Below are positions 9,128-49,064 of a stretch of 49,064 nucleotides of DNA, one piece after another. A program made the position numbers and the translations under genes. The stretch is from the NCBI GenBank assembly GCA_022710345.1, contig JAKLHB010000001.1:1-49064 (forward strand), in the 5' to 3' direction. This stretch comes from Planctomycetota bacterium (GTDB lineage: Bacteria; Planctomycetota; Uabimicrobiia; Uabimicrobiales; JABWCH01). The first letter of the stretch is position 1; each line of letters starts with the position of its first letter. The notes below the pieces were generated by a model. It searched no databases and was not told where the DNA came from. It worked only from the letters and a program-made list of their open reading frames with translations.

Positions 9128-10243
9128 TTATTTTTTGATTTCTTTTTTTTCGAGCAGGGACTGATATATTCGAAGATAGTCTTTCATCATTTGAGCTTTC
9201 GTGTAATTTTCACGACACTTTTGCTGATTTTCAGCTCCAAGCCATTGGCAATGATCGAGGTGATCAACTAAATAAGCCAAACTTCGGGCGTATGCAACAT
9301 CATCGCCAAGAGGCAGTATAAATTCTCGATTAGGATGGCTTACTAGGTCACGAATATCCCCCACATCCGTGCTCAAAATCGCACATCCTGCAGCCATGGC
9401 TTCTACCATGCAGATAGGCATTTGTTCGCTATCTGAAGAAAGTGCAAAAATATCCATTTGCTTAAAAAATTTAGATGGATCTGGTGCATGGCCTAAGAAT
9501 TTTATTTGAGCAGCATGAGGGCCTTGTTGAGCTAACTGCTCCAACTCTTTTCTGGATGGCCCTTCACCAATGAGCCATAGCTCATGCCGTGCCTCAACAG
9601 GCAGGCGATTGAATGCTTGAATCAGCCGTCCAACATTTTTGACAGGCCTTAGACCTGAAACAAATCCAACTACAGCCGGACTGCCTGGCGTTTTTTTGTG
9701 TCGTTCTGTATAAAACTTAGCATAATCTATCCCATTAGGGACATAAAGCACTTTGGAAGAAGGTAGTTTCCATATATTTTTGGCTATGTTTTCTAATGTA
9801 TGAGAAGGGACAACCACACAATTGCAGTGTGGTAGGAATATACGCCGCGTCCAAATACGCAATGGTTTCTGGCGAAAAAATTCATCTTGATTAAAGCCAT
9901 CTTCGCTATGAATGATTGGGCAAACTGAGGCAAAACAATGGGCCATCACCCATTCAATAGCACCCCAGTTATATGTGAGCAACAAATTGGGTTTTATTTT
10001 TAAGAGAAATTTGCGAATTTCTAAAATATTGTGAAACGTTCGTTTCTTAGGAATTTGCCAATCTGAATACACAACAGGCAGGCTTGTAGGCAAACGATCT
10101 TTGCACGTGTAATCATTATCCATAGCTAAGATAGTATGGCGAAATGGAGTGCCTAAATTTTGAATGATGTCTGAGGTGCGGACTTGTGGTCCGCCTGTGC
10201 TAAATGTAGAAAAGACATGCAATAAATGCCATGATTCATCCAT
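9128..10243 (-). CDS. Glycosyltransferase, GT4/GT-B fold (paralog 1)
   Basis: C-terminal E-x7-E-like region (SSDSEQMPICMVEAMAAGCAILSTDVGD). Clear paralog of the adjacent gene. Confidence 0.8.
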   Translation of the reverse strand: MDESWHLLHVFSTFSTGGPQVRTSDIIQNLGTPFRHTILAMDNDYTCKDRLPTSLPVVYSDWQIPKKRTFHNILEIRKFLLKIKPNLLLTYNWGAIEWVMAHCFASVCPIIHSEDGFNQDEFFRQKPLRIWTRRIFLPHCNCVVVPSHTLENIAKNIWKLPSSKVLYVPNGIDYAKFYTERHKKTPGSPAVVGFVSGLRPVKNVGRLIQAFNRLPVEARHELWLIGEGPSRKELEQLAQQGPHAAQIKFLGHAPDPSKFFKQMDIFALSSDSEQMPICMVEAMAAGCAILSTDVGDIRDLVSHPNREFILPLGDDVAYARSLAYLVDHLDHCQWLGAENQQKCRENYTKAQMMKDYLRIYQSLLEKKEIKK

Positions 10244-10291
10244 GCCATGCTCCTTGCTCTCTTAATTTTTAGCTAACTTTATATTTCATAA

Positions 10292-11380
10292 TTAGTTAAT
10301 AAATTTTTGATAAAGTTTTTGATATTCTTGCATCATCTTGCTCATCGTATATTTTTGTCCACACTGTTTTTGGTTTTCAAGACCAAGCTTTTGGCATACA
10401 TCTAAATGCTCTGCTAAATAACTTAAAGCATCAGCATAAGCATCTTCATCGCCTAAAGTTGTGATAAATCTTTGATTTGCTGGGTGCACCATATGGCGAA
10501 TATCGCCTACATCTGTACTGAGGATAGCGCAGCCGGCTGCCATAGCTTCTAAGATACAAATGGGCATTTGCTCACTTTCAGAAGAAAGAGCGCAAATGTT
10601 CATTTGTTGGAACAATGGGGCAGGATATTCCATATGCCCTAGAAATTTGATTTTGGCAGAATGAGAGCTTTGGCATGCTAGTTGTTGCAAGCGAGATCGT
10701 TCTATACCATCACCGATGATCCATAATTCATGCTGCGAGCTTGCAGGCAGCCGATTGAAGGCGTGGATCAATCGGGAAATATTTTTTACTGGTTTTAAGC
10801 CAGCAACAATGCCAATGATTGCTGGTGAACCTAGAGGCTTTGCTTGCCGTTGACTATAGAATTGATCATAATCAACTCCATTCGCAATATATTGAACTTT
10901 ATCCTCCGGCAATTTCCATGATTCCTCTGCGATTTGCTTTAAGGTATAAGATGGTACAACCACACAATCACAGTGTGGCAAAAATAGGCGACGTATCCAA
11001 ATACGACGTTGCTTTTGCTTTTTTAATTCATCTTCTCGAAACCCATCTTCAGTATGAATGATTGGGCAGATTCGGGTAATATAATGTGCCATTACCCATT
11101 CAATTGTTCCCCAATTATGAGTAAGCAATAAATGTGGCTTTGTTTTTAACAAAAATTTTCGAATTTCCAAAACATTGCGCAAGGTTCGCCTTTTAGGAAC
11201 TCGCCAATCTGAATACACAATAGGTATATTTAGGCCTAGCCGGCTGCTGCAACTATAATCGTCCTCCATGGCAATAATGGTATGGGAAAAGTTGGTGTCT
11301 AACTTTTGAATGATGTCTGCTGTACGAGCTTCAGCACCGCCTATACCAAATGTCGGGAAAACATGGAGTAAATGCTTCAT
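10292..11380 (-). CDS. Glycosyltransferase, GT4/GT-B fold (paralog 2)
   Basis: SSESEQMPICILEAMAAGCAILSTDVGD. Collinear with 9128-10243 along its whole length. Confidence 0.8.
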   Translation of the reverse strand: MKHLLHVFPTFGIGGAEARTADIIQKLDTNFSHTIIAMEDDYSCSSRLGLNIPIVYSDWRVPKRRTLRNVLEIRKFLLKTKPHLLLTHNWGTIEWVMAHYITRICPIIHTEDGFREDELKKQKQRRIWIRRLFLPHCDCVVVPSYTLKQIAEESWKLPEDKVQYIANGVDYDQFYSQRQAKPLGSPAIIGIVAGLKPVKNISRLIHAFNRLPASSQHELWIIGDGIERSRLQQLACQSSHSAKIKFLGHMEYPAPLFQQMNICALSSESEQMPICILEAMAAGCAILSTDVGDIRHMVHPANQRFITTLGDEDAYADALSYLAEHLDVCQKLGLENQKQCGQKYTMSKMMQEYQKLYQKFIN

Positions 11381-11539: not shown

Positions 11540-12598
11540 TTAATGTGAGTCTGGCTGCACTAATTCAAAATAACGAGTGATGGCTTTTCGATGTTGCAAG
11601 GAGACCTGCCACTTTTGTAAATACTGTTCAGCTTTTCGTTGGAAATCACGATATTGGAGTGGTGTTTGGCTGGTTGTGGTGTTTTCCTCTTGGCCAGCAG
11701 GGAGTTGAATTGTTTGCGACTCCATCCATGAAGCTCCTTGCCCAAACAATGGTTGAATTGATTGAGGCTGAAACCTAGGATTTTGCAAAGGGTTACATCT
11801 GGGATTTTGTTGTCTTTCCTGAGATTTCCTTGGTAATGACTGATCAGAATGATCTACTTGATCTGCTAAAGCCGGGGGTGGCTTTTTTGTCTCGACTTGA
11901 GCTGGAGTATCTACCGGAGTTGGCTTTTTTGTCTCGACTTGAGCCGGAGTTGGCTTTTTTGTCTCGACTTGAGCTGGAGTATCTACCGGAGTTGGCTTTT
12001 TTGTCTCGACTTGAATTGAAGTATCTGCCGGAGTTGGCTTTTCTGTCTTCTCGACTTGAGGCAGGTTGGCTACTGAACTCGGGTTTGCTTGCCCTAAATT
12101 TAGTGGTATTAAATGCCAACTCAGCCAAAGAATCAACCAAAAAACTAAAATCCACGATTCTTTTTGCCAAATAAATATTTTTTTCTTTGATCGAAATTGT
12201 TTTAAATATTGGGCAGCTTCTTGTAAAACCAAGTCTGTTGCCAAAGAACGTGGATGGTTGATAAAAAAGAATGCTGTGGTAATTAAATCAGGAAGTTGGG
12301 CTTCTTGATCCAAAGACTGAGCAACTTGCAATAGAGATGGGGCACACGACAATGCTTGGAGCAGAGCATACACGAGTGCTGCACATAGACCTCCGAACAT
12401 CCACCAATCTGGCAGTAAAAAATTAGGCTTGATTAATAACCAATCTAACCCGATGAGAGCATAAAGAATGACTAAAAAAACACTAGATGGCCAGCTAAAC
12501 CGAATCAAGAATGCCCAATAAATTTGGAAAAAATCTCGTAGGAGTGCTTGCCACCTTTGCTCAGAGAGTTTTTTCAAGACAATTTCGTACTCTACCAT
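11540..12598 (-). CDS. Hypothetical membrane protein with Pro/Thr/Lys-rich tandem repeats
   Basis: Several hydrophobic helices in the N-terminal half, then KKPTP(VDTP)AQVET repeats. The start could be 12598 (MVEYE) or 12631; both overlap the maf stop. Confidence 0.6.
   Translation of the reverse strand: MVEYEIVLKKLSEQRWQALLRDFFQIYWAFLIRFSWPSSVFLVILYALIGLDWLLIKPNFLLPDWWMFGGLCAALVYALLQALSCAPSLLQVAQSLDQEAQLPDLITTAFFFINHPRSLATDLVLQEAAQYLKQFRSKKKIFIWQKESWILVFWLILWLSWHLIPLNLGQANPSSVANLPQVEKTEKPTPADTSIQVETKKPTPVDTPAQVETKKPTPAQVETKKPTPVDTPAQVETKKPPPALADQVDHSDQSLPRKSQERQQNPRCNPLQNPRFQPQSIQPLFGQGASWMESQTIQLPAGQEENTTTSQTPLQYRDFQRKAEQYLQKWQVSLQHRKAITRYFELVQPDSH
11879..12060. repeat. In-frame tandem DNA repeat (42-bp and 30-bp units) inside the membrane-protein gene
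   Basis: ggagttggcttttttgtctcgacttgag(ctggagtatctacc) is repeated about 4.5 times. It encodes KKPTPVDTPAQVET / KKPTPAQVET. Confidence 0.85.
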
Positions 12599-13227
12599 GT
12601 TTGCATTCTCAATGAGGTGACTCGCTCCCATTCTTGGATAAATTGGCGCACTAAGTCCACAGGAAGCCCAACAACATTATCCCAAGGGCCATCCAAACGT
12701 TGCACAAACCGATCTGCTGTTTCTTGGATTGCGTATGCTCCTGCTTTGCCCATGGCTTCTCCTGAGTTAATGTAGTCATGAATTTCAAGATCGCTCATAG
12801 GTCTCATTGTTACATAAGTTTCTGCATATCCAATTAACCCTTGATTCCAGGCCAATGGCCATAGACATACGCCGGTCAAAACACGATGTTTTTGCCGAGA
12901 TAAACGCCAAAGCATGTCGTATGCATGCGAAGCATTTTCTGGTTTCCCCAGGATTTCGTTATGCAAAGCCACAATGGTATCTGCGGATAGAATCAAAATT
13001 TTTTCCCTCTGCTGTGGCGAATATTGAAAAAAAACTTGCTTGAACACTTGCTCAGCTTTTTGCCTAGCCAATTCTTGCACTGCCACAGATGGAATCCAAG
13101 ATGGATTAATTTTTTCTTCGATTTGCGGAGCTATGCTTTGAAATTGGAACCCTGCTTCTCGAAGAAGTTGGCTACGTCTAGGGGATTGAGATGCTAATAT
13201 TAACTCAAAATCCATTGTCTGCTCCAC
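12592..13227 (-). CDS. maf: Maf-like nucleoside triphosphate pyrophosphatase
   Basis: LILASQSPRRSQLL, ILSADTIV, GKAGAYAIQ motifs. Confidence 0.9.
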   Translation of the reverse strand: MEQTMDFELILASQSPRRSQLLREAGFQFQSIAPQIEEKINPSWIPSVAVQELARQKAEQVFKQVFFQYSPQQREKILILSADTIVALHNEILGKPENASHAYDMLWRLSRQKHRVLTGVCLWPLAWNQGLIGYAETYVTMRPMSDLEIHDYINSGEAMGKAGAYAIQETADRFVQRLDGPWDNVVGLPVDLVRQFIQEWERVTSLRMQTW

Positions 13228-14926: not shown

Positions 14927-16363
14927 TTATTTTCTTCTTGGTAATACGATATATTGCGAACCACGAGGAGTCACCAAGAGCATGACTACCAAGCTAGGTT
15001 CTTTTTCTAACGATGCTTTTAATTCAGACATAGTTTGTACTTTGATTTGATTCACACGAGCGATTACGCTTCCTTCTCGAATTCCATATTGTTCCGCAAC
15101 GCTGTTGGGTTGAATATTGGTAATGAGAAGGCCTGATTTAATGCGCAGCCTATATTGACGGGCTAGTTCAGGCGTGATTTCTCGAACTTCAATACCTAGT
15201 TCAGAAAGAGGTTGCATTCCGCCTGCATCATCGTCTCCAACATCTTCTTGCATATTCGCACGATCTAAATCCCCAATTGTAACTTCCAACGTAATTTGCC
15301 GATTTTCTCGAGCGATTTCCATGCGAACTTTTTTCCCAATGGCTGTGATAGCTACCAAATTACGCAATTGATTGGGGCTGTAAATGCTGGTTCCGTCAAA
15401 AGCCACAATAACATCGTCTTGTCTCAATCCAGCTTTCTCTGCAGGGCTATCTTTCATTACTTCGGTTACCAGAGCACCTTGTGATTGACTTAATCGTAAT
15501 CCTTTGGCCAATTCTGGAGTAATTTCCTGAATGCGTACACCTAACCAGCCTCTGCGTACTTTTCCATTGGCAATGAGTTGTTCCATCACACTACGAGCCA
15601 TATTGATTGGCACAGCAAATCCAATCCCTAGATTTCCACCTGTACGGCTTGCAATGGCTGTGTTGATCCCAATGATTTCTCCATGCAAGTTCACCAAAGG
15701 GCCGCCAGAATTGCCTGGGTTGACCGCAGCATCTGTTTGGATAAAATCTTCATATTCCACGATGCCAACATTCGCTCGACCCTTGGCACTGATAATTCCG
15801 GCTGTGACTGTTTGATTGAGCCCAAAAGGGTTTCCAATGGCCAAAACCCATTGTCCTACGGCAATTTTATCTGAATCGCCCATGGCTACAAAAGGCAAAT
15901 TTGTTCCTTCAATTTTGAGAACAGCAATATCTGTTTTCTCATCTGTCCCAATGATTTTTGCAGGAAATTCACGTTTGTCCGCAAGACGGACTGTCACCTG
16001 GTCAGCCCCTTGCACAACATGGTTGTTACTGAGGATGTATCCCTTGGGATCCACAATCACACCTGAGCCAAGGCCACGTTGCTCTGGTTCCCTATCCCTT
16101 GGCATAAAAGGAGGCCGTTCTCCAAAAAATCTTCGGAAAAATTCATCGCCAAAAAAATCATACATTGGATCACGCTCTGTTTCCCTGACCTTTTTGGTCA
16201 CCGAAACATTGACTACAGCAGGTGTCACTTTATTTGCTATTGTGGCAAATACTTTGGATTGTTCATCTAAGCGAGCAATGATCTGCTGTAAATTTTCATC
16301 CGAGGTCTGTGCCATCAAAGGGTAAATGGCAATAAAAAGTGCAAAAATAATGCAAATTTTCAT
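14927..16363 (-). CDS. htrA: Periplasmic serine endoprotease DegP/HtrA (trypsin domain plus two PDZ domains)
   Basis: Signal peptide MKICIIFALFIAIYPLMAQ, catalytic-triad context (NNHVV, DIAVLK, GNSGGPLVN), two PDZ-like regions. Confidence 0.95.
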   Translation of the reverse strand: MKICIIFALFIAIYPLMAQTSDENLQQIIARLDEQSKVFATIANKVTPAVVNVSVTKKVRETERDPMYDFFGDEFFRRFFGERPPFMPRDREPEQRGLGSGVIVDPKGYILSNNHVVQGADQVTVRLADKREFPAKIIGTDEKTDIAVLKIEGTNLPFVAMGDSDKIAVGQWVLAIGNPFGLNQTVTAGIISAKGRANVGIVEYEDFIQTDAAVNPGNSGGPLVNLHGEIIGINTAIASRTGGNLGIGFAVPINMARSVMEQLIANGKVRRGWLGVRIQEITPELAKGLRLSQSQGALVTEVMKDSPAEKAGLRQDDVIVAFDGTSIYSPNQLRNLVAITAIGKKVRMEIARENRQITLEVTIGDLDRANMQEDVGDDDAGGMQPLSELGIEVREITPELARQYRLRIKSGLLITNIQPNSVAEQYGIREGSVIARVNQIKVQTMSELKASLEKEPSLVVMLLVTPRGSQYIVLPRRK

Positions 16364-16590
16364 AACTTTCTGCCAGTGCTGTGACTCTTTCAGAGTGCCG
16401 CACTGCCTCCTAAACATCGAAGAAGTACTTCTTCAAAAGACATTGAAAAATAAGAAAACATCTTGTAATCATACTGCCATTTGGTATGTCTTAACTAGAC
16501 AAAAATACGAAAATTGTATTAGAATGTTTGAGATGAGGAATTATTGTACAAACCCAAGAAGAACTCTCGTATAAGATTGCACTGCAGCAA

Positions 16591-16831
16591 AGTTTTTTGC
16601 CGCGAAGCGGCTTGGGGATAAAGCCTGGGGTTTCTAACCCCAGGTTATGTCGAGTCTTATCGTGTCCTGATGGGACACAGGAAACCGTAGCATTCTATCA
16701 AAGAGAACTTTTATTTCCGAGCGAATTTTTATTTGATTGATACCAGAGGTTTCTGTAGTAACACGGAAAGCAAGTTTTACAATCCTTACAATAAAAATGC
16801 ATAATGCAAGTGCTTTATATGCTGAAACTTA
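16591..16831 (+). repeat. Structured repeat unit A (5'-diverged copy, long-tail subtype)
   Basis: Near-identical to 16999-17238. Hairpins gccgc-gaa-gcggc (16599-16611), cctgggg-tttctaa-ccccagg (16624-16644) and gtgtcc-tgatg-ggacac (16662-16678). Confidence 0.9.
16777..16805 (+). promoter_or_regulatory. sigma70-like promoter in the tail of repeat unit A (TTACAA-17-CATAAT)
   Basis: ttacaa at 16777-16782, 17-nt spacer, cataat at 16800-16805. The same arrangement recurs in unit B at 17184-17212. Confidence 0.35.
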
Positions 16832-16931
16832 CTGCGCTTCCCGATTGAATTCAATATAAAAATTAATATACTGTACCCAGGGTTGGTTTGCTCATTCTGG
16901 ATATTGTATTGAATCTGTTTGAGAAGCGCGG
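16832..16931. mobile_element. 100-bp MITE-like insertion with terminal inverted repeats and a TA duplication
   Basis: It interrupts the A|B junction, which is contiguous at the B|C junction (gaaactta|atatctc). Ends are ctgcgcttc ... gaagcgcgg (8/9 complementary), and ta flanks both sides (16830-16831 and 16932-16933). Confidence 0.6.
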
Positions 16932-16933
16932 TA

Positions 16934-17238
16934 ATATCTCTACTCGATGCCGTTGCATGGCCAGGACAAAAAAATTGTCATTTTGCCTTTTCTTTTGTGT
17001 TTTTTGCCGCGAAGCGGTTTGGGAATAAAGCCTGGGGTTTCTAACCCCAGGTTATGTCGACTCTTATCGTGTCCTGATGCGACACAGGAAACCGTAGCAT
17101 TCTATCAAAGAGAACTTTTATTTCCGAGCGAATTTTTATTTGATTGATACCAGAGGTTTCTGTAGTAACACAGAAAGCAAGTTTTACAATCCTTACAATA
17201 AAAATGCATAATGCAAGTGCTTTATATGCTGAAACTTA
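16934..17238 (+). repeat. Structured repeat unit B (full 305-bp unit, long-tail subtype)
   Basis: Starts atatctctactcgatgcc and ends gctgaaactta. Has the same three hairpins as unit A (17006-17017, 17031-17051, 17069-17085). Confidence 0.9.
17184..17212 (+). promoter_or_regulatory. sigma70-like promoter in the tail of repeat unit B (TTACAA-17-CATAAT), pointing into unit C and the island
   Basis: ttacaa at 17184-17189, 17-nt spacer, cataat at 17207-17212. Confidence 0.35.
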
Positions 17239-17447
17239 ATATCTCTACTCGATACCGTTGCATGGCCAAGACAAAAAAATTTGCCATTTTGCCTTTTCTT
17301 TTGTGTTTTTTGCCGCGAAGCGGTTTGGGAATAAAGCCTGGGGTTTCTAACCCCAGGTGTAGATGTGTCTTGCAGTGCCCTGAAGGGGCACCGGAAACTT
17401 CCTATAGCTCGAATCCTCATGTCTGCAGCGACAGAGAATCGCCCTAC
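17239..17447 (+). repeat. Structured repeat unit C (short-tail subtype), the left inverted repeat of the island
   Basis: 17245-17447 aligns to the reverse complement of 26615-26828. The first half is shared with A/B. The second half is a diverged version of the same hairpin architecture (gtgccc-tgaag-gggcac at 17375-17391). Confidence 0.9.
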
Positions 17448-17560
17448 AATATCTGGATACAGATTAAGGATTTTTTTAGTATATTCTAGCACAACAAGTT
17501 AGAATTTCCGAAAATCCACATAAGTGCAAGACTATTTTTTAATAGCAACCATGGAAAGCA

Positions 17561-20500
17561 TTATGAGAGCATGATTTTTTCGGAAACTTTTTTCAGAATT
17601 GTATTGATTTTCTCCAGTTGCTTGGGATTCGGAATGTTTCCAGCAAGCTCGATGCGTAGATGGAATTGGAGGCCACATCCGGCTGTTTCTTGGAGAAGCT
17701 CGCCCATCACTTCGGCGAGATTTTGTAATTCTTCAGGCTTGATAGCTACTTCTGCAATAGGAACGCCAGATTTTTTTGGCTTACCAGGTTGAAGTGGTAC
17801 TAACGAGTCTTCTTTTATAGGGATACGGAGTTTTATTTTGTTGGCTTCTGCCAGAGTGGTTCCAAACGTATGCATACCTGAATCGAGGGTGCATTCCAGA
17901 AGATGAGATTGGATCGCACCCTGGATGGCTTCTCGTACCGTAGGCCAGGGCAAAATTTTTCCACCCTTCTGGGATAAAGCGGAAAAGATGGCTACTGCCG
18001 TTGTTTCTTGTGCCTGCCATGCGCCAGGAAGCTTTTCTGGCATAATGTCATCCATTGGAATGGCCGGCGGTGGCGGTTGTAATCTTGCCGATTCCCAGAG
18101 AAGCCCATTGGGAATCTCTTCGCCCAGTATACTGGCTTCCTGGCAGGTAAGCCAAAGTTTCCCTTCTGCGACCGCTTTTTTCACTGCATTCTGAACTACA
18201 GCTTTGTCCGCTTGGGGAATGGTGACAGATTCTTCATAGCCTTGCTTGGGAACCTGGATAGTGACTCCGGAGAAGTATTGGCATAGATTTTCCAGAGCAA
18301 TCTCAGGATTTTGCCAGAGGCTAGGCAGTTTTCCTGGTGATAAAAAAGACGTGGGTATATCACTTAAGGTGGCGTGTTCGGGTAATACCACTTCCAACGC
18401 TGGATCTTGGAAAGAACTTTCGTCCGGTTCCTCATGCCAAAAGGTCTTTTTCGTGTGATCCGGACGGTTCAATTGAAGTACAAAGAAACCTTCCCTTGCC
18501 CCTTGTACAAGCGTATCCAAAATTTTTTTCGACCGCAACATCTTGGGAAGGTGAGGAAACTGGGCAAACGCATTTACCAGGTCTTTGACACGACGCGAGT
18601 GTTCTCCTTCACGCCAAAGGTCGTAAGGGCCTCCTGGTAGAAGAGCATCTGCGCTGATCTCACTATCCTGAATGCGCACCTCTTTGGTCTGTTTAATCAA
18701 GGAGAATAGCGGCTGATCTTGGATTACGAGCTTGATAGCCTGGATTTCATTCTTCTCGCCTACTGCGACCACAATCGAATAAGCCTGCCGAATCATGTCA
18801 GTAATTTTCTTGCGGGCCGATTCGAGATTGCTGTTGAGGAGCTCTTGCCGGATCGGGTCTAGCTCCTCTTTTTTAAACTGCAACCGCACTTCCTCCCAGC
18901 CCAGATATTCTCGAATGGTATTACGGCAGATATCCAGGCCGTCTTTGGAAGGAACCGCCAATACAATGCTGTTGCGAAAGACCCTGGGCCGATCCGAGGA
19001 GGTAGTTTCTTCGAGAAACCGTCTGGCCTCTGGGTTAGGCTTTCCTGGATCCGAGGCGGCACTCGGGCCAAGAATGGCAAAATGAAAATCGCCGTCATCT
19101 TCTATATCCTTCGGCTTCATCGGCAAGGTATGAACTTTTACTCCCAGTCCTATGGCCCCTTCTTTTAAGCTTTTGATTTTGGGGATTTCGACGATCAACC
19201 TGGATTCGATGACCTCCGGCACTATCCTTAGACAGGCATCGTGGTGCATCTGCTTGAGATTGGGCCTGGAACCTAGCCGCCATGATTTAGGAAGCTTAAG
19301 GCTTTCACCCGTTGCCAGCGCAGCCATGCTTTCGTCCAGGAACCAGGAAATCTGCGCCCAACGGATCAATCCTTTTTCTAGCTCAATCTTATCTGGATGA
19401 GTTGCACCCAAAAGTAGCAACAAATCCCGAGTGAGCGCTTTTTGGCTAATTGGCTGGGAATGCAAAAAGGTAGCTACTACCGCTTGTTCGATCTCCCGGT
19501 GAGACAAAGCGACCTCTTTCTGGATTTCTCTGGCTTTTGTCAGTTCCCCTTCTAAGATGCCTGCCCATGCCTGTTTTTTGCCTTCATACTCTTCCGTAGC
19601 CGCGACATTCGCCAATTCTTGTGCCGCTTCCGAAAGGTCTTTGAAGCCAGGCTTTCCTAAAAAGATGTTGGCACCAATCAGAGGAGAATCGTCCCATTTC
19701 TCCGCTTCCCGCAGAGCTAGAGCAAAGGTTCTGAGAACACCACGTGTGCGCTGGAAACCTTCCAGATTTGTCCATTTGGTATAAAAAATTTCGGTAAGGT
19801 CGGGATGGAAAGGATAGCTCAGGAAGAATCGTTCCTCCGCCTGTTTGCCTTCTTTGCGCGTCTGGTCGTCCAGTTCCCCAATGCCTTTTAAAGCTGCCAC
19901 CAGATGGCAGCGGAAATGGTCTTTGCACTGGATGCTTTCCGGGGTAAAAAAACGCCGACGCAGCACCTCGGCCACATCTTCCTTAACCACCGGCTGGATG
20001 CCTTCCTCACTTTCGCGGCGGAAGATGGAATAAATTTCTTGGGTTAGCTCTTTTCCCAATGTATCGCTTTTTCTTGGATCTGTTGCCAAGAGAGAGGCAA
20101 CCACAGCACAAGAGTCCACCTTGGTAGCCGCCTGGGTCAGGCACTGGAAAAAATTGAGCAACTTGCCACGCCAATTGGGATCCAAAGCCACCTTCTCTCG
20201 TGCATACATCAAAACCTCATCGCAAAGAATCAGAGTGCTGAGGTTTTCCTGCGCAGGCATGCTCAACAGGTCCAGAAGAAGATTTTCTGCCGGGGCACTT
20301 TCCCTTTCCTCCTCCTCTCCCCTGACATGAAGCAGTTTCAGGCCATTTTTACCTGCCAATTGAAATGCCAGAATACTCCACGGATTTTTGAGCCATTTCC
20401 GAGTTCCATCCATGCCCAATACTTCCATGCCTTTTTCCACATCCAGCTTATCAAAAGCCAGAACAGCGATTCGAGCTTGTGCTGGACTGATGCCAATATG

Positions 20501-20860
20501 CTGGCAGAACTCCTGCACGGCAGGCAGAGTGGGCAAATGCTTGGGATCATGGACAAGATGGTATAAGGTGATAAGCGCGTGCGTTTTGCCACCACCATAG
20601 GTAAGTTCCAGTTGATGCACTGCCTTGGCATTTTTCTTAGCCAATCGTAATACCACATCTTTGGCCAGTTCACGTAGATTATAGGTAGGATAGGTCAAAG
20701 AAAAAAACTCCGTAGGGTCTTCATATTGCGAACGCCGATTCTTCTTCATCGCCACATCGTATAAATCAGCAGCAAATAGGGAAAGCGAAAGCTCTCCCGA
20801 CCGGAGTTCCTCCCGAAGGTGGACTACTTCATGCCATGGTTTCCAGGAAAGTTTTGTCAT
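17561..20860 (-). CDS. DUF499-family ATPase (large P-loop protein of helicase-methylase-ATPase type defence cassettes)
   Basis: The N-terminus (KPWHEVVHLREEL...LFAADLYDV...FFSLTYPTYNLREL...LELTYGGGKTHALITLYHL) matches my memory of the DUF499 signature. 1099 aa. Confidence 0.8.
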   Translation of the reverse strand: MTKLSWKPWHEVVHLREELRSGELSLSLFAADLYDVAMKKNRRSQYEDPTEFFSLTYPTYNLRELAKDVVLRLAKKNAKAVHQLELTYGGGKTHALITLYHLVHDPKHLPTLPAVQEFCQHIGISPAQARIAVLAFDKLDVEKGMEVLGMDGTRKWLKNPWSILAFQLAGKNGLKLLHVRGEEEERESAPAENLLLDLLSMPAQENLSTLILCDEVLMYAREKVALDPNWRGKLLNFFQCLTQAATKVDSCAVVASLLATDPRKSDTLGKELTQEIYSIFRRESEEGIQPVVKEDVAEVLRRRFFTPESIQCKDHFRCHLVAALKGIGELDDQTRKEGKQAEERFFLSYPFHPDLTEIFYTKWTNLEGFQRTRGVLRTFALALREAEKWDDSPLIGANIFLGKPGFKDLSEAAQELANVAATEEYEGKKQAWAGILEGELTKAREIQKEVALSHREIEQAVVATFLHSQPISQKALTRDLLLLLGATHPDKIELEKGLIRWAQISWFLDESMAALATGESLKLPKSWRLGSRPNLKQMHHDACLRIVPEVIESRLIVEIPKIKSLKEGAIGLGVKVHTLPMKPKDIEDDGDFHFAILGPSAASDPGKPNPEARRFLEETTSSDRPRVFRNSIVLAVPSKDGLDICRNTIREYLGWEEVRLQFKKEELDPIRQELLNSNLESARKKITDMIRQAYSIVVAVGEKNEIQAIKLVIQDQPLFSLIKQTKEVRIQDSEISADALLPGGPYDLWREGEHSRRVKDLVNAFAQFPHLPKMLRSKKILDTLVQGAREGFFVLQLNRPDHTKKTFWHEEPDESSFQDPALEVVLPEHATLSDIPTSFLSPGKLPSLWQNPEIALENLCQYFSGVTIQVPKQGYEESVTIPQADKAVVQNAVKKAVAEGKLWLTCQEASILGEEIPNGLLWESARLQPPPPAIPMDDIMPEKLPGAWQAQETTAVAIFSALSQKGGKILPWPTVREAIQGAIQSHLLECTLDSGMHTFGTTLAEANKIKLRIPIKEDSLVPLQPGKPKKSGVPIAEVAIKPEELQNLAEVMGELLQETAGCGLQFHLRIELAGNIPNPKQLEKINTILKKVSEKIMLS

Positions 20861-21212
20861 ATATGGATTCTCCTATTATCTTTTCTACTTCCATCAATTC
20901 CTTTATAAGATAGGGCAAATCTTTTTCGATGATATTCCAAATAACATTCATATCAACATGAAAATGTCCATGGATTAAACGGTCTCTAGTTCCTATAATG
21001 CCTTTCCAAGGAATTCGAGTAAATTCTTTGGAAGTTTCTGGAGATATCTTTTTCGCCGCTTCGCCTATCATTTCCAGAAGTCTTAAAACAGCAAGAACCA
21101 GCACTTCTTCATTCTCAAATTCTTGTCTTGTTTTTCCATCAATAAATTTTATTACTTTTTGGCTTGCGTCTAACATATGGCGAATGCGAATTCTGTCTTC
21201 ATGATTGAACAT
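20829..21212 (-). CDS. hepT: HEPN-domain (DUF86) toxin of an MNT/HEPN pair
   Basis: R-x4-H motif in GTRDRLIHGH. About 127 aa. 14-nt overlap with the upstream MNT gene, and the 3' end overlaps the DUF499 start by 32 nt. Confidence 0.85.
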   Translation of the reverse strand: MFNHEDRIRIRHMLDASQKVIKFIDGKTRQEFENEEVLVLAVLRLLEMIGEAAKKISPETSKEFTRIPWKGIIGTRDRLIHGHFHVDMNVIWNIIEKDLPYLIKELMEVEKIIGESIYDKTFLETMA

Positions 21213-21498
21213 ATTCTACCTGGGCTTCTTTTATTACAGCATCACGAAAATATGGACTTAGAAAATCAACCGTATTCAAATCCACTTTTCTTCCGAGCAT
21301 AGAAGAAAGGCTATCTTGTAGCTCAAAAAAAGCAAAACCTGGAGTATGCCCAGATTCAAACTCTACCAATATGTCAATATCACTCTCTGGGCCAAAATCG
21401 TCCCTCAAAACCGAGCCAAATAAGGCAAACTTTTTAATATGATGGACTCTACAAAAATCACTGATTTCCTTTTTCGGAATAAGAATGTTTTTATTCAT
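21199..21498 (-). CDS. mntA: Minimal nucleotidyltransferase (MNT) antitoxin
   Basis: LFGSVLRDDFGPESDIDILVEF (GS-x9-D-x-D). AGGA RBS upstream of the ATG at 21498. The track start at 21534 has no RBS. Confidence 0.85.
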   Translation of the reverse strand: MNKNILIPKKEISDFCRVHHIKKFALFGSVLRDDFGPESDIDILVEFESGHTPGFAFFELQDSLSSMLGRKVDLNTVDFLSPYFRDAVIKEAQVEYVQS

Positions 21499-21561
21499 AA
21501 AACAGTTCCTGTAGTTTAGTATTTTCTGGATCATTAGGGAAGTTTTGTCATAGGGATGCTC

Positions 21562-21798
21562 CTAAAACCTTGTAATTTCTACATAATGGTGTTTTTGACG
21601 TGCCTCTTGCACCATATTTTCCAATCGGGCTGCTACGTCATCTGGAATCCATTCGTTTCCGCACATAGAGCATAAACTAGCAGGTACATCCCTGATTACC
21701 ACGAGACCCTCACCAAAGTCTGTTGTAAAAGTGGTTTTACCTTGTTTTTTTGTTCCACCACACAAGGGACATTGGTCAGGCAAAGTCGCAAGTTTCAT
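21562..21798 (-). CDS. YgiT-type (MqsA N-terminal-like) zinc-finger protein, 78 aa
   Basis: CPLCGG...(27 aa)...CSMCGNEW, a two-CxxC zinc ribbon. gggagaag RBS. No adjacent toxin-like partner. Confidence 0.7.
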   Translation of the reverse strand: MKLATLPDQCPLCGGTKKQGKTTFTTDFGEGLVVIRDVPASLCSMCGNEWIPDDVAARLENMVQEARQKHHYVEITRF

Positions 21799-21816
21799 AA
21801 CTTTCTTCTCCCATTG

Positions 21817-22570
21817 CTAATTTTCTGTCTTCTCAATCCAGGTATCTTGTTTATTCGTGTTCTCTCTCCCCTTTGCTACCAGATGGTTGCTGATGCTTTC
21901 GAGGAGGGATCTTTCTTTGGTGCCATTTTCGGAGAGTTCGATGAGTGCCTGGAGAAATCGGGGGAATATGGCGAGCCTACGCAGTCCTCGAGATTCGAGG
22001 TATTCGTCTACTTTGGCCACATCTCCTTCTTTCCAGAGGTGCATGATGCGATGGATCTGGTCAATCAAAGGAATGGGAAGGTTGTGAGCGGTGGAATAGC
22101 CCATGTTTTTTTGTTTGCGTTGGACCCAGGTTTTGAGCTTGAGTTGGGAGCCGGTGCCTTTGGAAATTGGTTCGTCTTCTTTCATTTCCTCTGCATCGTC
22201 TGCATCGTCTGCATCATCTTCGTCCTCTGTGGTGGAAGATTGCTTCCCCCCGGTGCGAGCCAGAATGTCGTACTGCTCTGTCAGGTCCCGATCCGACAAT
22301 CCACAAGACAGGGAATACAGGATGCACACACCGCTGGGAACCTCATCCATGCCAAAGTCGTGGCGGTGCAAAAGGTAGTATGAGTGCTGCTCGACAAGCG
22401 GCCAGCGGTCTGCGCGCCGGCCAAATATGCAAGGTGGAAATATGCCCATGCCGGACATTCTTCTCATGCACAGAATCCAAAGAAGCCTGCTTCAAGGGAA
22501 ACGCCACCTCGATCAGACGAGGCTGATCGTTGCTTGGTTTATCATTCATCGAAATTGATCCTTTCGGCAT
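21817..22570 (-). pseudogene. DUF1156-family DNA methylase remnant: N-terminal and C-terminal pieces only, in two frames
   Basis: ORF 22343-22570 encodes [45 protein letters not shown] (DUF1156 signature) and then stops. ORF 21817-22467, in another frame, carries a typical C-terminal helix region (LIDQIHRIMHLWKEGDV...FLQALIELS). No SAM-binding or catalytic motifs fit in the about 250 codons available. Confidence 0.7.
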
Positions 22571-22617
22571 CGTTACTTATTTGTTGTCATCACCATCCAT
22601 GGCGCACATTCACGTTC

Positions 22618-22794
22618 TCACAACAGAATCGCCCTTTGAATCGTATCTACCTCTTGCGTTTCAAAATATGCCTCTCCACACTGGGTACATACCCAGGCAG
22701 GAATTTGATTCCAAACGATATGATACCCCTTTCGATCCAAATAAAATGGAGCCGTGCTTTTTTCCATAATGCCTTTGCAATAAATGCATTCCAT
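22618..22794 (-). CDS. YgiT-type zinc-finger protein, 58 aa (not in the ORF track)
   Basis: AGGAGG lies 7 nt upstream of the ATG at 22794. MECIYCKGIMEKSTAPFYLDRKGYHIVWNQIPAWVCTQCGEAYFETQEVDTIQRAILL has CxxC...CxxCGE. TGA at 22618-22620. Confidence 0.65.
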   Translation of the reverse strand: MECIYCKGIMEKSTAPFYLDRKGYHIVWNQIPAWVCTQCGEAYFETQEVDTIQRAILL

Positions 22795-22852
22795 ACTATA
22801 TCCTCCTTCGAAAATCTGCTTACTTTTTCCAAAATTTGCACATCAACCAATT

Positions 22853-25800
22853 TTAGTCCCCTTCCTCCATCTGCCATATTTCCTCTGCTGCTATCACCAC
22901 GCCGCCTCGGGGCTGTCCCAATAGTCTTCCAAATGGATCTTGGATACGCAAGAGCCTTGGGTGGGGTGTAGCGCAATCAAAGACTACATATAGCCAATAA
23001 CGGGAGCGCAGGTTGCAGGCTTTCACCCATTCATTGGTGGAAAGCTCGATATTACCTATATTGGCACGGCCTTTGACCTCGATGGCGCGCTCTTCTCCGT
23101 CCGGACGCTTCGAAACGAGATCAAAACCGGGCCAATGGACAAGCCCGCAAGCCTTTGCTTTCTCTGGCGTGGAAACGTCGCTGACTTGCGCGCCTTTGGA
23201 TTGTTCATGCGCAATGGCGATTTGCATGGCTATTTTTTCCATGTTTTCGTCGTATCTTTGCCCATCGTTTTCGTTATATGCTTGCTGATCTTGCAAGCCT
23301 TGTGGAGGAACTACCAGGGCAAATGCTAGAAAGGTTACCTTCTGCGATACGATCAATTCTGGCTCTCGGGCCAATCGTCGCAGGCTGTTTTCCAATTGGT
23401 GTCCCAAAAGTTTCTGGCGTTCTTTAATTCGCAAGAGTTCTGCCTTGGCTTCTGGATATCCAGCTCGCTCTTTCTCCGTCAACCTGGCTCGAATCATTGC
23501 CAATTCCGCAGATTGGAAATCATAACCGCGTTTGATAAAATTCTGCCTTTCCTCCAAAGCGTCTAGAAGAACCTGTCGTCGCGCCTTAGCAATGGGGAAT
23601 GCGATCTGCTGCAGGATATAAGCCTTGACTCGATCTAAGGAATTTGTAGCCAGGCTGGCAAACGAAATCTCGGCTTCCGGAACCCGCTGTGTGCCTTGCA
23701 GCAGCAATAGAGCTTCGACCGGGCATTCTTCTAAAGTTCCATTCTTATTCTGCCGAATCCCTACCAGCCTGTATTCGAGCACTTCCTTACGAGCGAAGGA
23801 CGGGATCTCAGAATCCGCCTCCCGCTCCACAGTAAAGACTGCCAGATAAAAAAGGTACGCTTCTGGAGCATGGGGGTTGATGAACACGCCGCCTTGTAGT
23901 GCCTCTGGACGAAAGAACGAGCAGACAAAGCTACGAAACTTATCAAAGAAAGGATCCCCAGGACGCAAGAAAATCGCGGAGTTGGGATCAGAAGGCTTGC
24001 AAACAGTAAAATGCTCCTGCTGCGAAGGCAAATAAGCATCCAAAGCATAGAGAAGAAATTCCAGCTTAGGAGGAAACGAGGTAAAGCAAAAATGATCCAT
24101 GCTTCCCTTCATGCCGATTCCCAATAACTCAGCCGCCTTTTCCATGAACCAGTAAACATAGCCAGGCAAAAGATGGTAATATTCTTCTGGATCCATAGCC
24201 CCGCTGGCGGTATTTTTATGATTTTCCTCTGCGGTGAGATGATTGTCCTCTACATCGCAAATTTCCCGCAGCCTTTTTACCGAGACCAGTTCCTCTATTT
24301 TTTTCTCGATCTCTGTGGTTCCTTCCTCGGTAATGGTCTGTTCCATATATTCCTTAAGGGAGATTCCTTCCAACAGCCTGCCGATGCAATCGAATACCTT
24401 GTCCGATCCAAGTTCTTTGCGAATCGTTTCCAGCTTCTTTAAAAGAGTGGCCAGTACCCTGCCTTCCCGGGTGTTTTTGGCGACCAGATTGAGGATCACG
24501 ACCGGATCGTGTTTCTGTCCGTAGCGGTGGATTCGGCCCATCCTTTGCTCTAAGCGGGCTGGATTCCAAGGGATATCGTAGTTGATCATAAGCCAGCAAA
24601 ATTGGAGGTTGATTCCTTCTCCTGCCGCATCGGTTCCTATGAGATAGGTTGCGCCTCCTTCCGCTGCACTTTTCTGGAAAAACTTTACCTGCTCTTCCCG
24701 CTCTTCATACGGCATTCCACCATGAACCTGGGCAATTTTTTCCGTAAACCCAAGCCCTTCCATTCGTCGCACAAGGAAATGAAGCGTATCCCGATGCTCG
24801 GTAAAGATGATGATCTTTTCCTCGCGGTATTGCGGGTCTTGGAGAATCTCTTGCAGTTTGCTGAATTTCGATTCCTCCCCTTTCTGGTATACCCGTTCTG
24901 CCAAGTCTAGAACATTGGAAAGCTGCGATTTTTCTACCTCCAACTCAGCCAATGAAGTGGCTACTATGCCTTCGAGCAGATTGGTTTCGGCAATCTCATT
25001 TTCTTCCTGGCCCTCTTCTGCCTCTTCTTCCTCTGCGGTCTTTTGTTCCCAGACATCCGGATAATTATCGAGCTTACGTTGCAAAGCCATAAGCCCGGCG
25101 GAAGTAATTTTCCCTGAACGGATGGCTTCTATCCAATCTTCTAGCTTCTGAAGGCGGTTCTTTAAAGACTGCACAAGAGCGTAGGTGGAACTCGCCAGAC
25201 GACGCTGAAAAATCATCATGGCAAACCGCACCGCAGAGCGATTTAAAATACGTGCACGGTTGTAGAATGTCCTGAGATAGTCGCTGGTCTTGTCATAAAG
25301 CTCCTGTTCGCTGTCTTCGCCTGAGGTCAATTGATACGTCAATGTATCAGAGATGCGCATGGGATAAAGGGGAGTTCCATCCGCATTCACCATCTCCTCT
25401 TTCGTGCGTCTTAGAAAATGGTGATATCGAAAAGGTTTTCGTCCTTGAGTAGATCCAGGGCATAGATGACCCGAGTAATCACGAAATGATTCCCAGGTAG
25501 GAAAAATCTCGGGAACCAGGAGCTTCCAAAGCGCGTAATAGGGAAAATCTTTCCCCATGTGCGGAGTGGCTGTCAGCAGCAACAAATGCGTTGCATGCCA
25601 GGCAAGCCGCCATCTGGGATCACGGTCTGCAATGCCAGCAAGTGCTTCGGCAAGATGGTATCGTTCGGTCTTGCGCACTCGTAAATCTAGCTCACGATCT
25701 GCGGACAGTTTGTGCGCTTCGTCGAAAATTACCAAATCATAAGGAACCACCGTTTCCTCTTGCAAACGGCAGAACATAGTATCTCCAGCCAAAGTATCCA

Positions 25801-26512
25801 GACTGACAATGACAAAGTCGCTCTCTGGCCCGATAAAAGGATTAGCGGAACGAGCTTCGATGCCCCGGACAATATGAAATCTCAGACCAAATAAGGTTCT
25901 TAGCTCTCGTTCCCAGTTGCCAAGAAGCCCTGCTGGCGGGATAATCAAGACTCTTTTGATCGCTCTTCTGGCGATCATTTCCCGGATATATAAGCCGGAC
26001 ATGATGGTTTTGCCAGCACCGGCATCATCGGCCAGAAGGAAACGCAGGCAAGGCTCTGGTAGCAAATATTCATAGACGGCGACCCGTTGATGAGGCAAAG
26101 GGGCGATCAAAGAAGTCTCTGTGGCAAAAACCGGATTAAACAGATGCCCCAAACCAAGCCTTTCTCCTTCGGCCACCAGTCTTACCATTTCAGGATTCGC
26201 AGAAAAATCTGGGCTTACAGGCTCCGAAGGCTCTTCGGGCCTCTCTATTCCATAAACAGGGCTGGCCTCTTTGGCAATCGTAAGTTCCTGCGCACCATGT
26301 GAACTATACGCAGTCTCGGTATGCAAAATTCGCTGCCAGGCTACCATAGTAGGCTTGGCTTTGCCATTCTCCCAACGATTTATGGTGGCAAACGACACGC
26401 CCAAAATTTCTGCCAAATGGCTCTGCGTCAATCCATGCCTGGCTCGCAATCTTTTGATACGAATTGGATAATCAGACGGAACCTGGTATTTCAACGAACT
26501 ATCCTCGCTCAA
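22853..26512 (-). CDS. SNF2/RapA-like superfamily-2 helicase with N-terminal XRE-type HTH and C-terminal PD-(D/E)xK-like (DUF3883-like) domain
   Basis: HGLTQSHLAEILGVSFATINRWENG (HTH); LLADDAGAGKTI (motif I), FDEAHKL (II), LLLTATP (III), GTDAAGEGINLQ (V), WNPARLEQRMGRIHRYGQ (VI). C-terminus: DLVSKRPDGEERAIEVKG...YWLYVV. Only TTG starts are available (26512 or 26494). Confidence 0.9.
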   Translation of the reverse strand: MSEDSSLKYQVPSDYPIRIKRLRARHGLTQSHLAEILGVSFATINRWENGKAKPTMVAWQRILHTETAYSSHGAQELTIAKEASPVYGIERPEEPSEPVSPDFSANPEMVRLVAEGERLGLGHLFNPVFATETSLIAPLPHQRVAVYEYLLPEPCLRFLLADDAGAGKTIMSGLYIREMIARRAIKRVLIIPPAGLLGNWERELRTLFGLRFHIVRGIEARSANPFIGPESDFVIVSLDTLAGDTMFCRLQEETVVPYDLVIFDEAHKLSADRELDLRVRKTERYHLAEALAGIADRDPRWRLAWHATHLLLLTATPHMGKDFPYYALWKLLVPEIFPTWESFRDYSGHLCPGSTQGRKPFRYHHFLRRTKEEMVNADGTPLYPMRISDTLTYQLTSGEDSEQELYDKTSDYLRTFYNRARILNRSAVRFAMMIFQRRLASSTYALVQSLKNRLQKLEDWIEAIRSGKITSAGLMALQRKLDNYPDVWEQKTAEEEEAEEGQEENEIAETNLLEGIVATSLAELEVEKSQLSNVLDLAERVYQKGEESKFSKLQEILQDPQYREEKIIIFTEHRDTLHFLVRRMEGLGFTEKIAQVHGGMPYEEREEQVKFFQKSAAEGGATYLIGTDAAGEGINLQFCWLMINYDIPWNPARLEQRMGRIHRYGQKHDPVVILNLVAKNTREGRVLATLLKKLETIRKELGSDKVFDCIGRLLEGISLKEYMEQTITEEGTTEIEKKIEELVSVKRLREICDVEDNHLTAEENHKNTASGAMDPEEYYHLLPGYVYWFMEKAAELLGIGMKGSMDHFCFTSFPPKLEFLLYALDAYLPSQQEHFTVCKPSDPNSAIFLRPGDPFFDKFRSFVCSFFRPEALQGGVFINPHAPEAYLFYLAVFTVEREADSEIPSFARKEVLEYRLVGIRQNKNGTLEECPVEALLLLQGTQRVPEAEISFASLATNSLDRVKAYILQQIAFPIAKARRQVLLDALEERQNFIKRGYDFQSAELAMIRARLTEKERAGYPEAKAELLRIKERQKLLGHQLENSLRRLAREPELIVSQKVTFLAFALVVPPQGLQDQQAYNENDGQRYDENMEKIAMQIAIAHEQSKGAQVSDVSTPEKAKACGLVHWPGFDLVSKRPDGEERAIEVKGRANIGNIELSTNEWVKACNLRSRYWLYVVFDCATPHPRLLRIQDPFGRLLGQPRGGVVIAAEEIWQMEEGD

Positions 26513-26614
26513 AATAGTCTTCTGTTTGGGAATAGTAATACTGCCATTTCTTGCCGATTATGGACTAGATTGGGAAGCAAAAATTTCCTAGTTCATAGCA
26601 TTCCAAAAGGTTAT

Positions 26615-26828
26615 GTACGGCGATTCTCTGTCGCTACAGACATGAGGATTCGAGCTATAGGAAGTTTCCGGTGCCCCTTCAGGGCACTGCAAGACACATC
26701 TACACGTGGGGTTAGAAACCGGTTAGAAACCCCAGGCTTTATCCCCAAGCCGCTTCGCGGCAAAAAACACAAAAGAAAAGGCAAAATGGCAAATTTTTTT
26801 GTCTTGGCCATGCAACGGCATCGAGTAG
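26615..26828 (-). repeat. Structured repeat unit D, the right inverted repeat of the island and the 5' leader region of the helicase operon
   Basis: Its reverse complement matches 17245-17447, with roughly seven substitutions by hand count plus an 11-bp tandem duplication (ggttagaaacc x2, 26710-26731). Confidence 0.9.
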
Positions 26829-31340: not shown

Positions 31341-31559
31341 GGGATTATAATGAATTTTAGGATGCTCTATTTCTGCTGATTTAGCAGTCCCAAGAAAACA
31401 TTCAAAGAAAGTTTACTTTCTTTGCTGTGTTGCTTGGATGGCTAGAAAATAGCCGACAGCACCTGCTGCAATTGGCCGAAAGGCAACGTTTCTTGAGTTG
31501 CTGTTGTGTTCCCTAAAAAAGTTATCATCAATTTTTTTATACTTTTTAGAAAGGTTGTT

Positions 31560-48594: not shown

Positions 48595-48638
48595 GTGCAT
48601 GCAACTTTGCCAAGAAAACATGCAAAGGAAATATGAGT

Positions 48639-49064
48639 GCTTAGCCGTGCCGCTTAGCATGCTAGAAAACGTCCGATAGCGTCTGCTGGAATTGGCGGGA
48701 GTTGCAAGGAGGTGGAAAGGAGGCAAAAAAAATAAAGCGTGTGCCAATTCAGCAGCGCCCCAGAAATCGTCCAAAGGAAAGTTGCGCGCTTAGCCGTGCT
48801 GCTTTGCAGGCTAGAAAGCGTCCGATAGCGTCTGCTGGAATTGGCGGGAATGGCAAGGAGGTGGAAAGGAGGCAAAAAAAATAAAGCGTGTGTCAATTCA
48901 GCAGCGCCCCAGGAAGCGTCCAAAGGAAAGTTGCGCGCTTAGCCGTGCTGCTTTGCAGGCTAGAAAGCGTCCGATAGCGTCTGCTGGAATTGGCGGGAAT
49001 GGCAAGGAGGTGGAAAGGGAGCCAAAAAAATAAAGCGTGTGCCAATTCAGCAGCGCCCCAGAAA
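48639..49064. repeat. Tandem array of 149-bp noncoding repeat units (at least 2.9 copies, truncated by the window edge)
   Basis: Unit starts (gcttagccgtgc) at 48639, 48788 and 48937. Units 2 and 3 are nearly identical and unit 1 is more diverged. 149 is not a multiple of 3. Confidence 0.9.

Follow-up and report, generated by a model that had tools for sequence, protein, structure and literature searches.

A hairpin-rich array in a planctomycete genome is probably a set of nested miniature mobile repeats carrying a REP-like cassette

Repetitive extragenic palindromic (REP) and REPIN elements, together with RAYT (REP-associated tyrosine, Y1, HUH) transposases, form a known system (Bertels & Rainey 2011, PMC3116915), and GTAG-tagged REPs with Y1 transposases have been described from organisms including Planctomycetes and Verrucomicrobia (Di Nocera et al. 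2013, PMC3733652). The Acido-Lenti-1 motif (Rfam family RF01687) was originally described from Acidobacteria and Lentisphaerae with no function given and sometimes near group II introns (Weinberg et al. 2010, PMC2864571); the literature that we searched mentions it only in passing, and we found no statement there calling it a REP. Here we analysed a stretch of 49,064 nt from a Planctomycetota bacterium (assembly GCA_022710345.1, contig JAKLHB010000001.1, positions 1 to 49,064 of the forward strand; hereafter the window), in which three hairpin-rich units on the plus strand (A, B, and C) and an inverted unit D had been taken in an earlier note for a tandem array of an unclassified structured RNA family. 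Our results make it probable that this region consists of nested, non-coding, and non-autonomous miniature mobile repeats of two families (T1 and T2) with a cassette of a known and widespread REP-like family, and not of a new tandem RNA gene family. This makes the feature a rather ordinary one: T1 and T2 occur dozens of times in this planctomycete, and their cassette is kin to a known widespread repeat.

All four units and every hairpin were verified by reading positions 16000-18200 of the window and by repeat scans. In each unit, a T-rich run precedes the first of three hairpins (hp1, hp2, and hp3; Table 1). Over a length of 240 nt, unit A (16592-16831) shares 98% identity with unit B (16999-17238), the shared part extends into C (17245-17448), and C is 97% complementary over approximately 215 nt to the inverted unit D (26614-26828). 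Neither the 46-nt core nor the 21-nt hp2 occurred even once in dinucleotide shuffles of the window. The common architecture reported earlier therefore stands, but the units do not form a head-to-tail array: Tandem Repeats Finder reported none in the window because they are mosaic rather than simple head-to-tail copies. The U-A to C-G swap in hp3 is real (C and D both read GTGCCC-TGAAG-GGGCAC) and is one case of a wider covariation of this hairpin. The single mismatch noted in hp3 of unit B is also present (C·C), but it adjoins the loop instead of lying at the stem base, and the additional hairpin that had been assigned to units A and B is not specific to them, being the 5' terminal hairpin of an element that ends in C. 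Single copies show decay, such as the mismatched hp3 of B and the hp2 of D, in which 11 nt are duplicated internally and CAGG has become CACG. All cassettes in the window are intergenic. A coding explanation was rejected, as the open reading frames (ORFs) that overlap unit C (17211-17489 on the plus strand and 17193-17492 on the minus strand) are not conserved between units.

The 21-nt hp2 was used as query in a metagenome scan, and repeat families were defined by comparing the flanks of the copies retrieved. In total, 72 hp2 copies were retrieved from 68 metagenome contigs, most of which belong to the sample series of the window; many of the copies are found at contig ends, as expected because repeats break assemblies. 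T1, approximately 245 nt long, begins with AGAACTCTCGTATAAG and ends with CCGAAAATCCAC; its copies have at least 31 different upstream flanks, and its 5' boundary is common to about 30 copies whose upstream flanks are unrelated. T2 starts with CAGAGGTTTCTGTAGTAACAC after unrelated flanks in five other loci, has at least seven distinct upstream flanks, and occurs in 3' variants with a total length of about 290-400 nt. The two families have different termini and the same internal three-hairpin cassette of about 100 nt. Target-site duplications of 6 bp accompany T1 (TTATGG in locus L109, TATGGG in L149, and a near-match, ATCAAA, in L110), and duplications of 5 bp accompany T2 (GATAC in the window and ATTAC in L127). 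The first 14 bases of the T2b copy in L127 agree at 12 positions with its reverse-complemented 3' end. Nested or tandem arrangements are common elsewhere as well (e.g., L101, L128, L139, L150, and L160).

These families make it possible to read the history of the array. In the window, T1 stops at GATAC, T2 occupies 16744-17455, and T1 resumes with GATAC at 17456; thus, T2 was inserted into T1 with a 5-bp duplication. The GATAC/CAGAGG junction occurs twice in the window. Unit B, which is composed of T2 upstream sequence, the core, the T1 middle, and this junction, has the composition that a single unequal crossover between the near-identical 53-nt T2 and T1 cores would leave; this event duplicated 306 nt. 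A and B are spaced by 407 nt and not by the expected 306 nt, the difference being a 100-nt element at a duplicated TA, and this element is missing from the otherwise identical B-to-C junction. The 100-nt repeat was inserted into the first copy after the 306-nt duplication. Unit D, inverted and 9.2 kb distant, is a T2 copy that is truncated and decaying. In order, T2 entered a resident T1 and duplicated GATAC, recombination between the cassette cores then generated unit B, and the third repeat landed at TA later. The feature that had been placed at 16591-17447 is there, but it is part of a composite extending from 16560 to 17519, and one miniature repeat inside another plus an unequal crossover, with the repeat present at dozens of sites, replaces the proposed tandem array of RNA genes. 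Other copies of the 100-nt repeat, at about 90% identity, were observed in L109, L128, and L148, implying a separate repeat family of the same organism. In the linkers between hp1 and hp2 (16612-16623, 17019-17030, and 17325-17336), the two variable bases are the reverse of what the family consensus would give: unit A, although part of T1, carries C..G as in T2, and units B and C carry T..A as in T1. Judged by these bases, this is a further sign of exchange between cores.

Table 1. Positions of the hairpins, repeat parts, and associated signals in the window.
Feature	Position	Strand	Remarks
hp1, GCCGC-GAA-GCGG[C/T]	16599-16611 (A), 17006-17018 (B), 17312-17324 (C); 26749-26761 (D)	+ (A-C); - (D)	
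hp2, CCTGGGG-TTTCTAA-CCCCAGG	16624-16644 (A), 17031-17051 (B), 17337-17357 (C); 26705-26736 (D)	+ (A-C); - (D)	damaged in D
hp3	16662-16678 (A), 17069-17085 (B), 17375-17391 (C); 26671-26687 (D)	+ (A-C); - (D)	GTGTCC-TGATG-GGACAC in A
Additional hairpin, TTTCTGT-AGTAAC-AC(G/A)GAAA	16750-16769 (ACGGAAA), 17157-17176	+	T2 5' terminal hairpin; overlaps the T2 terminal inverted repeat
Unit A hairpin cassette, hp1-hp3	16599..16678	+	48.1 bits with model R1; all three hairpins in the minimum-free-energy fold
T1 5' part (unit A)	16560..16743	+	starts AGAACTCTCGTATAAG, ends TTGATTGATAC; 5' boundary common to ~30 copies
GATAC, left copy of the 5-bp target-site duplication	16739..16743		intact T1 copies read TTGATTGATACAGATTAAGG; GATAC at both junctions here
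Inserted T2 block	16744..17455	+	from CAGAGG... to ...CAATATCTG; enlarged by the 306-nt internal duplication and the 100-nt insertion
Sigma-70-like promoter match in T2, TTTACA-N18-CATAAT	16776..16805; second copy 17183-17212	+	10/12 matches; points into the cassette
Third, unrelated 100-nt miniature repeat	16832..16931	+	at duplicated TA; ends CTGCGCTTC and reverse complement of CCGCGCTTC
Unit B: duplicate T1 core and middle through the T1/T2 junction	16999..17150	+	98% identical to 16592-16831; T2 sequence before, GATAC/CAGAGG after
Complete T2a copy including unit C	17151..17455	+	43.5 bits with R1
T1 3' part	17456..17519	+	GATACAGATTAAGG...CCGAAAATCCAC; opens with the right GATAC copy; 92-98% identical to 15 other T1 3' ends
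Unit D: 5'-truncated T2a copy	26614..26828	-	lacks first ~100 nt of T2; 32.1 bits with R1
Termini CAGAGGTTTCTGTA.../...TCTG			a putative parent insertion sequence is predicted to have these or the T1 ends

Relatives of the cassette were searched for in one-genome-per-species data with a pattern made of the window's own stems, leaving loop and linker free. The same stems and spacing were found at more than 97 loci, which according to their record titles include members of Acidobacteriota, Planctomycetota, Verrucomicrobiota, Armatimonadota, Myxococcota ('Deltaproteobacteria'), Desulfobacterales, a Cytophagia metagenome-assembled genome, and Pseudomonadota; the motif spans at least seven phyla. 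These relatives score 38-55 bits against RF01687, for which the gathering threshold is 37 bits, and always do so on the strand opposite to that on which the cassette is read here (L001-L097). In RF01687, an 8-bp stem that ends in a short loop is separated by a 12-nt linker from a second stem of 5 bp, whose loop has 3 nt, an architecture with which the window layout (21-nt hairpin, 12-nt linker, and 13-nt hairpin) agrees. At the level of sequence, this comparison shows the first two hairpins of the cassette to be an AT-shifted relative of the Acido-Lenti-1 motif. With model R1, which was built from the cross-phylum instances, the window copies score 32-48 bits, although these values are partly circular, as the stems had been fixed by the search pattern; the low score of D is due to the 11-nt duplication in its hp2. 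Beyond the hairpin of 20-21 nt, the 12-nt linker, and the 5-bp stem with its 3-nt loop, the two resemble each other in being multi-copy and having no tie to particular genes (proximity to group II introns is documented in Lentisphaerae; PMC2864571 supplement). They differ in that the loop and linker of the window copies are AT-shifted, that the Rfam strand is the opposite one, the wobble pairs favouring the strand read here, and that the window motif is an internal cassette of larger elements which also contain a third hairpin. Two groups of contigs are worth describing separately. In the PPYE01 contigs (L100, L123, L145, and L166), an hp2 identical to that of the window belongs to a large palindromic element (roughly 200 nt), in which hp1 is compensated (GCGCT-GAA-GGCGC) and the second arm has a different stem, CCCAAGG...CCTTGGG; the element is a REPIN-like doublet with non-identical arms. 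The SDBV01 contigs (L146 and L158) contain the closest high-similarity relatives of the cassette and, upstream, a separate GTAG-tagged hairpin (GTAGGGCCGTGGTTCACCCACGGCC); thus, the cassette there sits in a REP cluster.

Conservation of the structure was examined in alignments of these sequences. For hp1 and hp2 (87 distinct sequences), pairing holds in 97.8% of the cells and 11 of the 13 pairs show changes on both sides, values that none of 500 shuffles reached, in an alignment whose fitting to the model favours structure; sliding the partners against each other lowers pairing to 30-50%. The third hairpin was not used in collecting the sequences. It is found 20-27 nt after hp2 in 79 of 92 instances, compared with 11 of 92 when shuffled, in the form of more than 12 different stems, and all of its five pairs covary. 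Hence, the proposal that the hairpins are conserved structures of a real family is strongly supported by covariation in a large alignment of homologous copies. Among T1 copies, per-column variability did not convincingly separate stems from non-stems. G·T pairs outnumber A·C pairs by 17 to 2 at hp3 and by 15 to 3 at hp1/hp2, from which it follows that the folding strand is the first-read one, with the NYAG tag 5' of the hairpin, and not that of Rfam. The annotated strand of RF01687 is probably reversed, as both these counts and the position of GTAG suggest. Fold z-scores were -2.4 and -1.8 on the plus strand and -3.65 on the minus strand. The strand asymmetry fits either single-stranded DNA (ssDNA) or RNA, and fold energies do not decide between them. 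It should be mentioned that ssDNA is the substrate of HUH/Y1 enzymes, such as those of IS200/IS605 elements and the REP-associated transposases.

The relatives also behave as REPs in several respects. When ORFs adjacent to them were clustered, one recurrent protein was obtained, a 149-aa Y1 transposase (Pfam PF01797, E = 4e-24 to 5e-27; above the cut-off of the NCBIfam IS200/IS605 transposase model NF033573). Its genes are present in four loci (L004, L008, L083, and L095) from three Planctomycetota genomes, with inverted arrays of the motif on both sides. Among 88 relatives, the four bases before hp2 are NYAG, including GTAG in 12 of 88, and the Lentisphaera seed sequences of RF01687, when reverse-complemented, read small hairpin-GACA...GTAG-main hairpin. 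The relatives often occur as convergent pairs about 175 nt apart and also form palindromic elements. Like REPs, the window repeats are short, GC-rich, extragenic hairpins that are clustered, mosaic, and present in high copy number, and the tag 5' of the main hairpin, the convergent doublets, and the inverted arrays flanking Y1 genes are further points of likeness on the side of the relatives. On the other hand, REPIN organisation is absent from T1 and T2, where every cassette stands alone and points the same way, the organism has no known Y1 gene (none was found in the window or in the fetched low-GC loci), and the window hairpins ride in larger units, some copies of which show target duplications. 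Because relatives in other phyla that share these stems and this spacing match RF01687 and behave as GTAG/NYAG-tagged REPs flanking Y1 genes, a clear match to a known repeat exists, and the element can no longer be called unclassified.

With regard to the larger units, bacterial miniature inverted-repeat transposable elements (MITEs) and mosaic repeats, such as the Correia elements of Neisseria, the pneumococcal BOX and RUP elements, and the enterobacterial BIMEs, provide the appropriate comparison. Similar to these, T1 and T2 are small and non-coding, are present in dozens of copies with the same ends at unrelated sites, and have, in some copies, short target duplications and, in one T2 variant, terminal inverted repeats; they are also modular, nested, or tandem, contain promoter-like sequences, and often lie just upstream of genes. 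However, here two families with different termini share one strongly structured cassette that has cross-phylum relatives, and no parent insertion sequence was identified for T1 or T2, including within the window. We suggest that the whole T1 and T2 units are probably moved by a trans-supplied transposase making staggered cuts of 5-6 bp, that the cassette is most likely a recognition module inherited from a REP/Y1-transposase system, and that the hairpins have probably been kept because of single-stranded folding on the first-read strand. The promoter-like sites within T1 and T2 may drive neighbouring genes.

A number of observations weigh against this interpretation. The window copies carry AAAG at the tag position, not NYAG or GTAG, and have no RF01687 match at gathering, or at E<=10 over 16400-17600 and 16585-16660. 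The Rfam covariance search proposed earlier thus assigned them to no family: only junk matches were obtained on the window at gathering and at E<=10, and only a tRNA on 121 kb of loci from the low-GC organisms, whose copies likewise miss RF01687. The Y1 genes next to the relatives score as IS200-type and fall below the cut-off of the NCBI model for REP-associated tyrosine transposases. Among the copies for which both flanks are available, only about half show clean target duplications, with none for T1 in L106, L114, or the window copy and none for T2 in L117 or L133. T1 has no convincing terminal inverted repeat (about 7 of 11 bases match by eye), the 3' end of the window T2a matches its 5' end poorly (about 6 of 9, by eye), and neither the window nor the flanks fetched for low-GC copies encode any type of transposase. 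We therefore infer, rather than demonstrate, the mode of movement of T1 and T2, because some copies lack a duplication and T1 lacks clear inverted ends. Finally, a repeat moved by cut-and-paste has no obvious need for strand-specific internal hairpins, which leaves room for a role at the RNA level.

Such a role is the strongest of the other explanations, although we would still regard it as doubtful. The cassette would be a cis-acting RNA module on mobile elements, serving as a stabiliser, a processing site, or a 5'-leader and transcribed from the T2 promoter or by read-through, and it would be compatible with mobility. The asymmetry of wobble pairs, which favours one folding strand, could be explained in this way, and Rfam lists the related motif as an RNA; however, G·T wobble is tolerated in ssDNA hairpins too, and the plus-strand fold z-scores are modest. 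The putative promoter of T2 lies about 100 nt upstream and points into the cassette (other T2 copies have TATAAT at the -10-like site), and T1 contains a weaker match (TTGATA-N17-TAGTAT) near its 3' end. However, promoter-like sites are not enriched in the region (5 found vs 3.4 expected from shuffles), and no intrinsic terminator follows the cassette on the plus strand, the only match being a weak one at hp2 on the minus strand. T1 3' ends are located 18-27 nt upstream of a same-strand start codon at 5 of 12 distinct sites, but about as many T1 copies, including that of the window, face the 3' end of a convergent gene. In L109, L110, L120, L136, and L140, where a start codon follows after 18-27 nt, the T1 3' ends adjoin purine-rich sequence resembling both a ribosome-binding site and the T1 5' end (GAGAAC). 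Either a preference for such targets or selection of a mobile promoter or leader may lie behind this location.

A less likely explanation is that T1 and T2 need no cut-and-paste enzyme and move like REPINs or IS200/IS605-derived palindrome-associated elements, a Y1/HUH (RAYT-like) transposase mobilising them directly through their hairpins. The flanking of Y1 genes by cassette relatives, the strand-specific structure, and the tendency of copies to adjoin or nest in one another are consistent with this possibility, but the hairpins are internal and not subterminal, and some T1 and T2 copies have target duplications of 5-6 bp and, in one T2 variant, the 12/14 terminal inverted repeat described above, neither of which, to our knowledge, is made by Y1 transposition. 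The AAAG tag in place of GTAG, the absence of inverted doublets in this organism, and the lack of a Y1 gene in the fetched loci also argue against it. Ends of IS200/IS605-derived elements, attC sites, and type III toxin-antitoxin repeats were rejected on the basis of internal hairpins, target duplications, the absence of an adjacent toxin or cassette, and the wrong unit size.

A view along the lines of the earlier note, that the units are independent, trans-acting small RNA genes multiplied by duplication, appears very unlikely. Although the hairpins are conserved and covarying, T2 has a promoter-like site, and the region is non-coding with overlapping ORFs that are not conserved between units, the dozens of copies with transposon-like ends and target duplications, their nesting, the truncation or damage of single copies, the absence of a terminator, and the failure to reach any Rfam family all contradict it, as does the finding that the two 'subtypes' differ everywhere except in the cassette. 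The least probable alternative is that the C/D inverted pair serves as a switch inverting or mobilising a 9.2-kb Hma-type defence island, since its arms are 97% identical over about 215 nt, inverted, and bracket HmaC, a HepT/MNT pair, and HmaA, but with D 5'-truncated and damaged, the pair lacks matching outer ends, its members are copies of a repeat found at many unrelated sites, no recombinase is located nearby, and the other orientation was not seen (L118, the sole other copy of the locus, covers only unit A).

Returning to nested mobile repeats with a REP-like cassette, a more far-reaching and tentative proposal would be that Acido-Lenti-1 is not a small RNA gene but a REP-type repeat that belongs to a Y1-transposase lineage found in at least seven phyla and that is annotated on the wrong strand, and that the module has been captured here by two target-duplicating MITEs and is still selected to fold, e.g., as an RNA leader with a promoter upstream of genes. 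If this were true, T1 and T2 would be hybrids of both main classes of bacterial miniature repeats. For curators, the data indicate that RF01687 is a REP-like, Y1-associated mobile repeat whose annotated strand is probably wrong and whose range of phyla is much wider than the name implies. The presence of the same structured cassette in two different miniature transposons raises the question of how modules are exchanged and retained. A false lead is also removed, in that nested insertion and unequal recombination account for what looked like a unit structure. In practical terms, the repeats break assemblies of this organism and sit by gene starts and around a defence island.

The window has a G+C content of 42% and contains genes for seryl-tRNA synthetase, Maf, EngA, HtrA, MiaA, and RNase Y; it has no tRNA, no Rfam match at gathering, and no transposase gene, and no tRNA or tmRNA genes or fragments that could serve as integration sites were found in it. 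The array is situated between the start of htrA (14927-16417, minus strand) and the 3' end of a gene encoding a 1099-aa protein. Between units C and D (17561-26512) lie HmaC (17561-20860), the HepT/MNT toxin-antitoxin pair, a 216-aa ORF without matches, and HmaA (22853-26512). No methylase (HmaB) is visible, and the Hma defence system thus looks incomplete or rearranged. An HtrA protein 100% identical to that of the window is encoded on a JGI contig of sample 3300019216, and the nearest relatives, one of which is named Candidatus Brocadiae, are 58-63% identical, which makes a Brocadiae-like planctomycete the probable source of the window. The locus with the 63%-identical HtrA (L099) shares only htrA-engA-maf with the window and has neither the array nor an orthologous copy.

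Other repeats were observed in the window. Three tandem units of 149 nt (89-90% identical) at 48610-49064 run off the window end and belong to another repeat family, and a single copy at 31390-31476 is related to them at 70-74%; this family has no Rfam match at gathering. Periodic repeats of 24 and 57 nt (AAAAAGACAGCTTTG-like) are present at 33571-33771, near the 5' end of an ORF (33455-36223) with no Pfam match, and repeats of 72 and 42 nt at 11870-12055 lie within another ORF (11540-12631) that also has no Pfam match. At 9128-11380, two adjacent paralogous genes for family-4/group-1 glycosyltransferases, whose DNA is 71-79% identical at an offset of 1146 nt, represent a tandem gene duplication.

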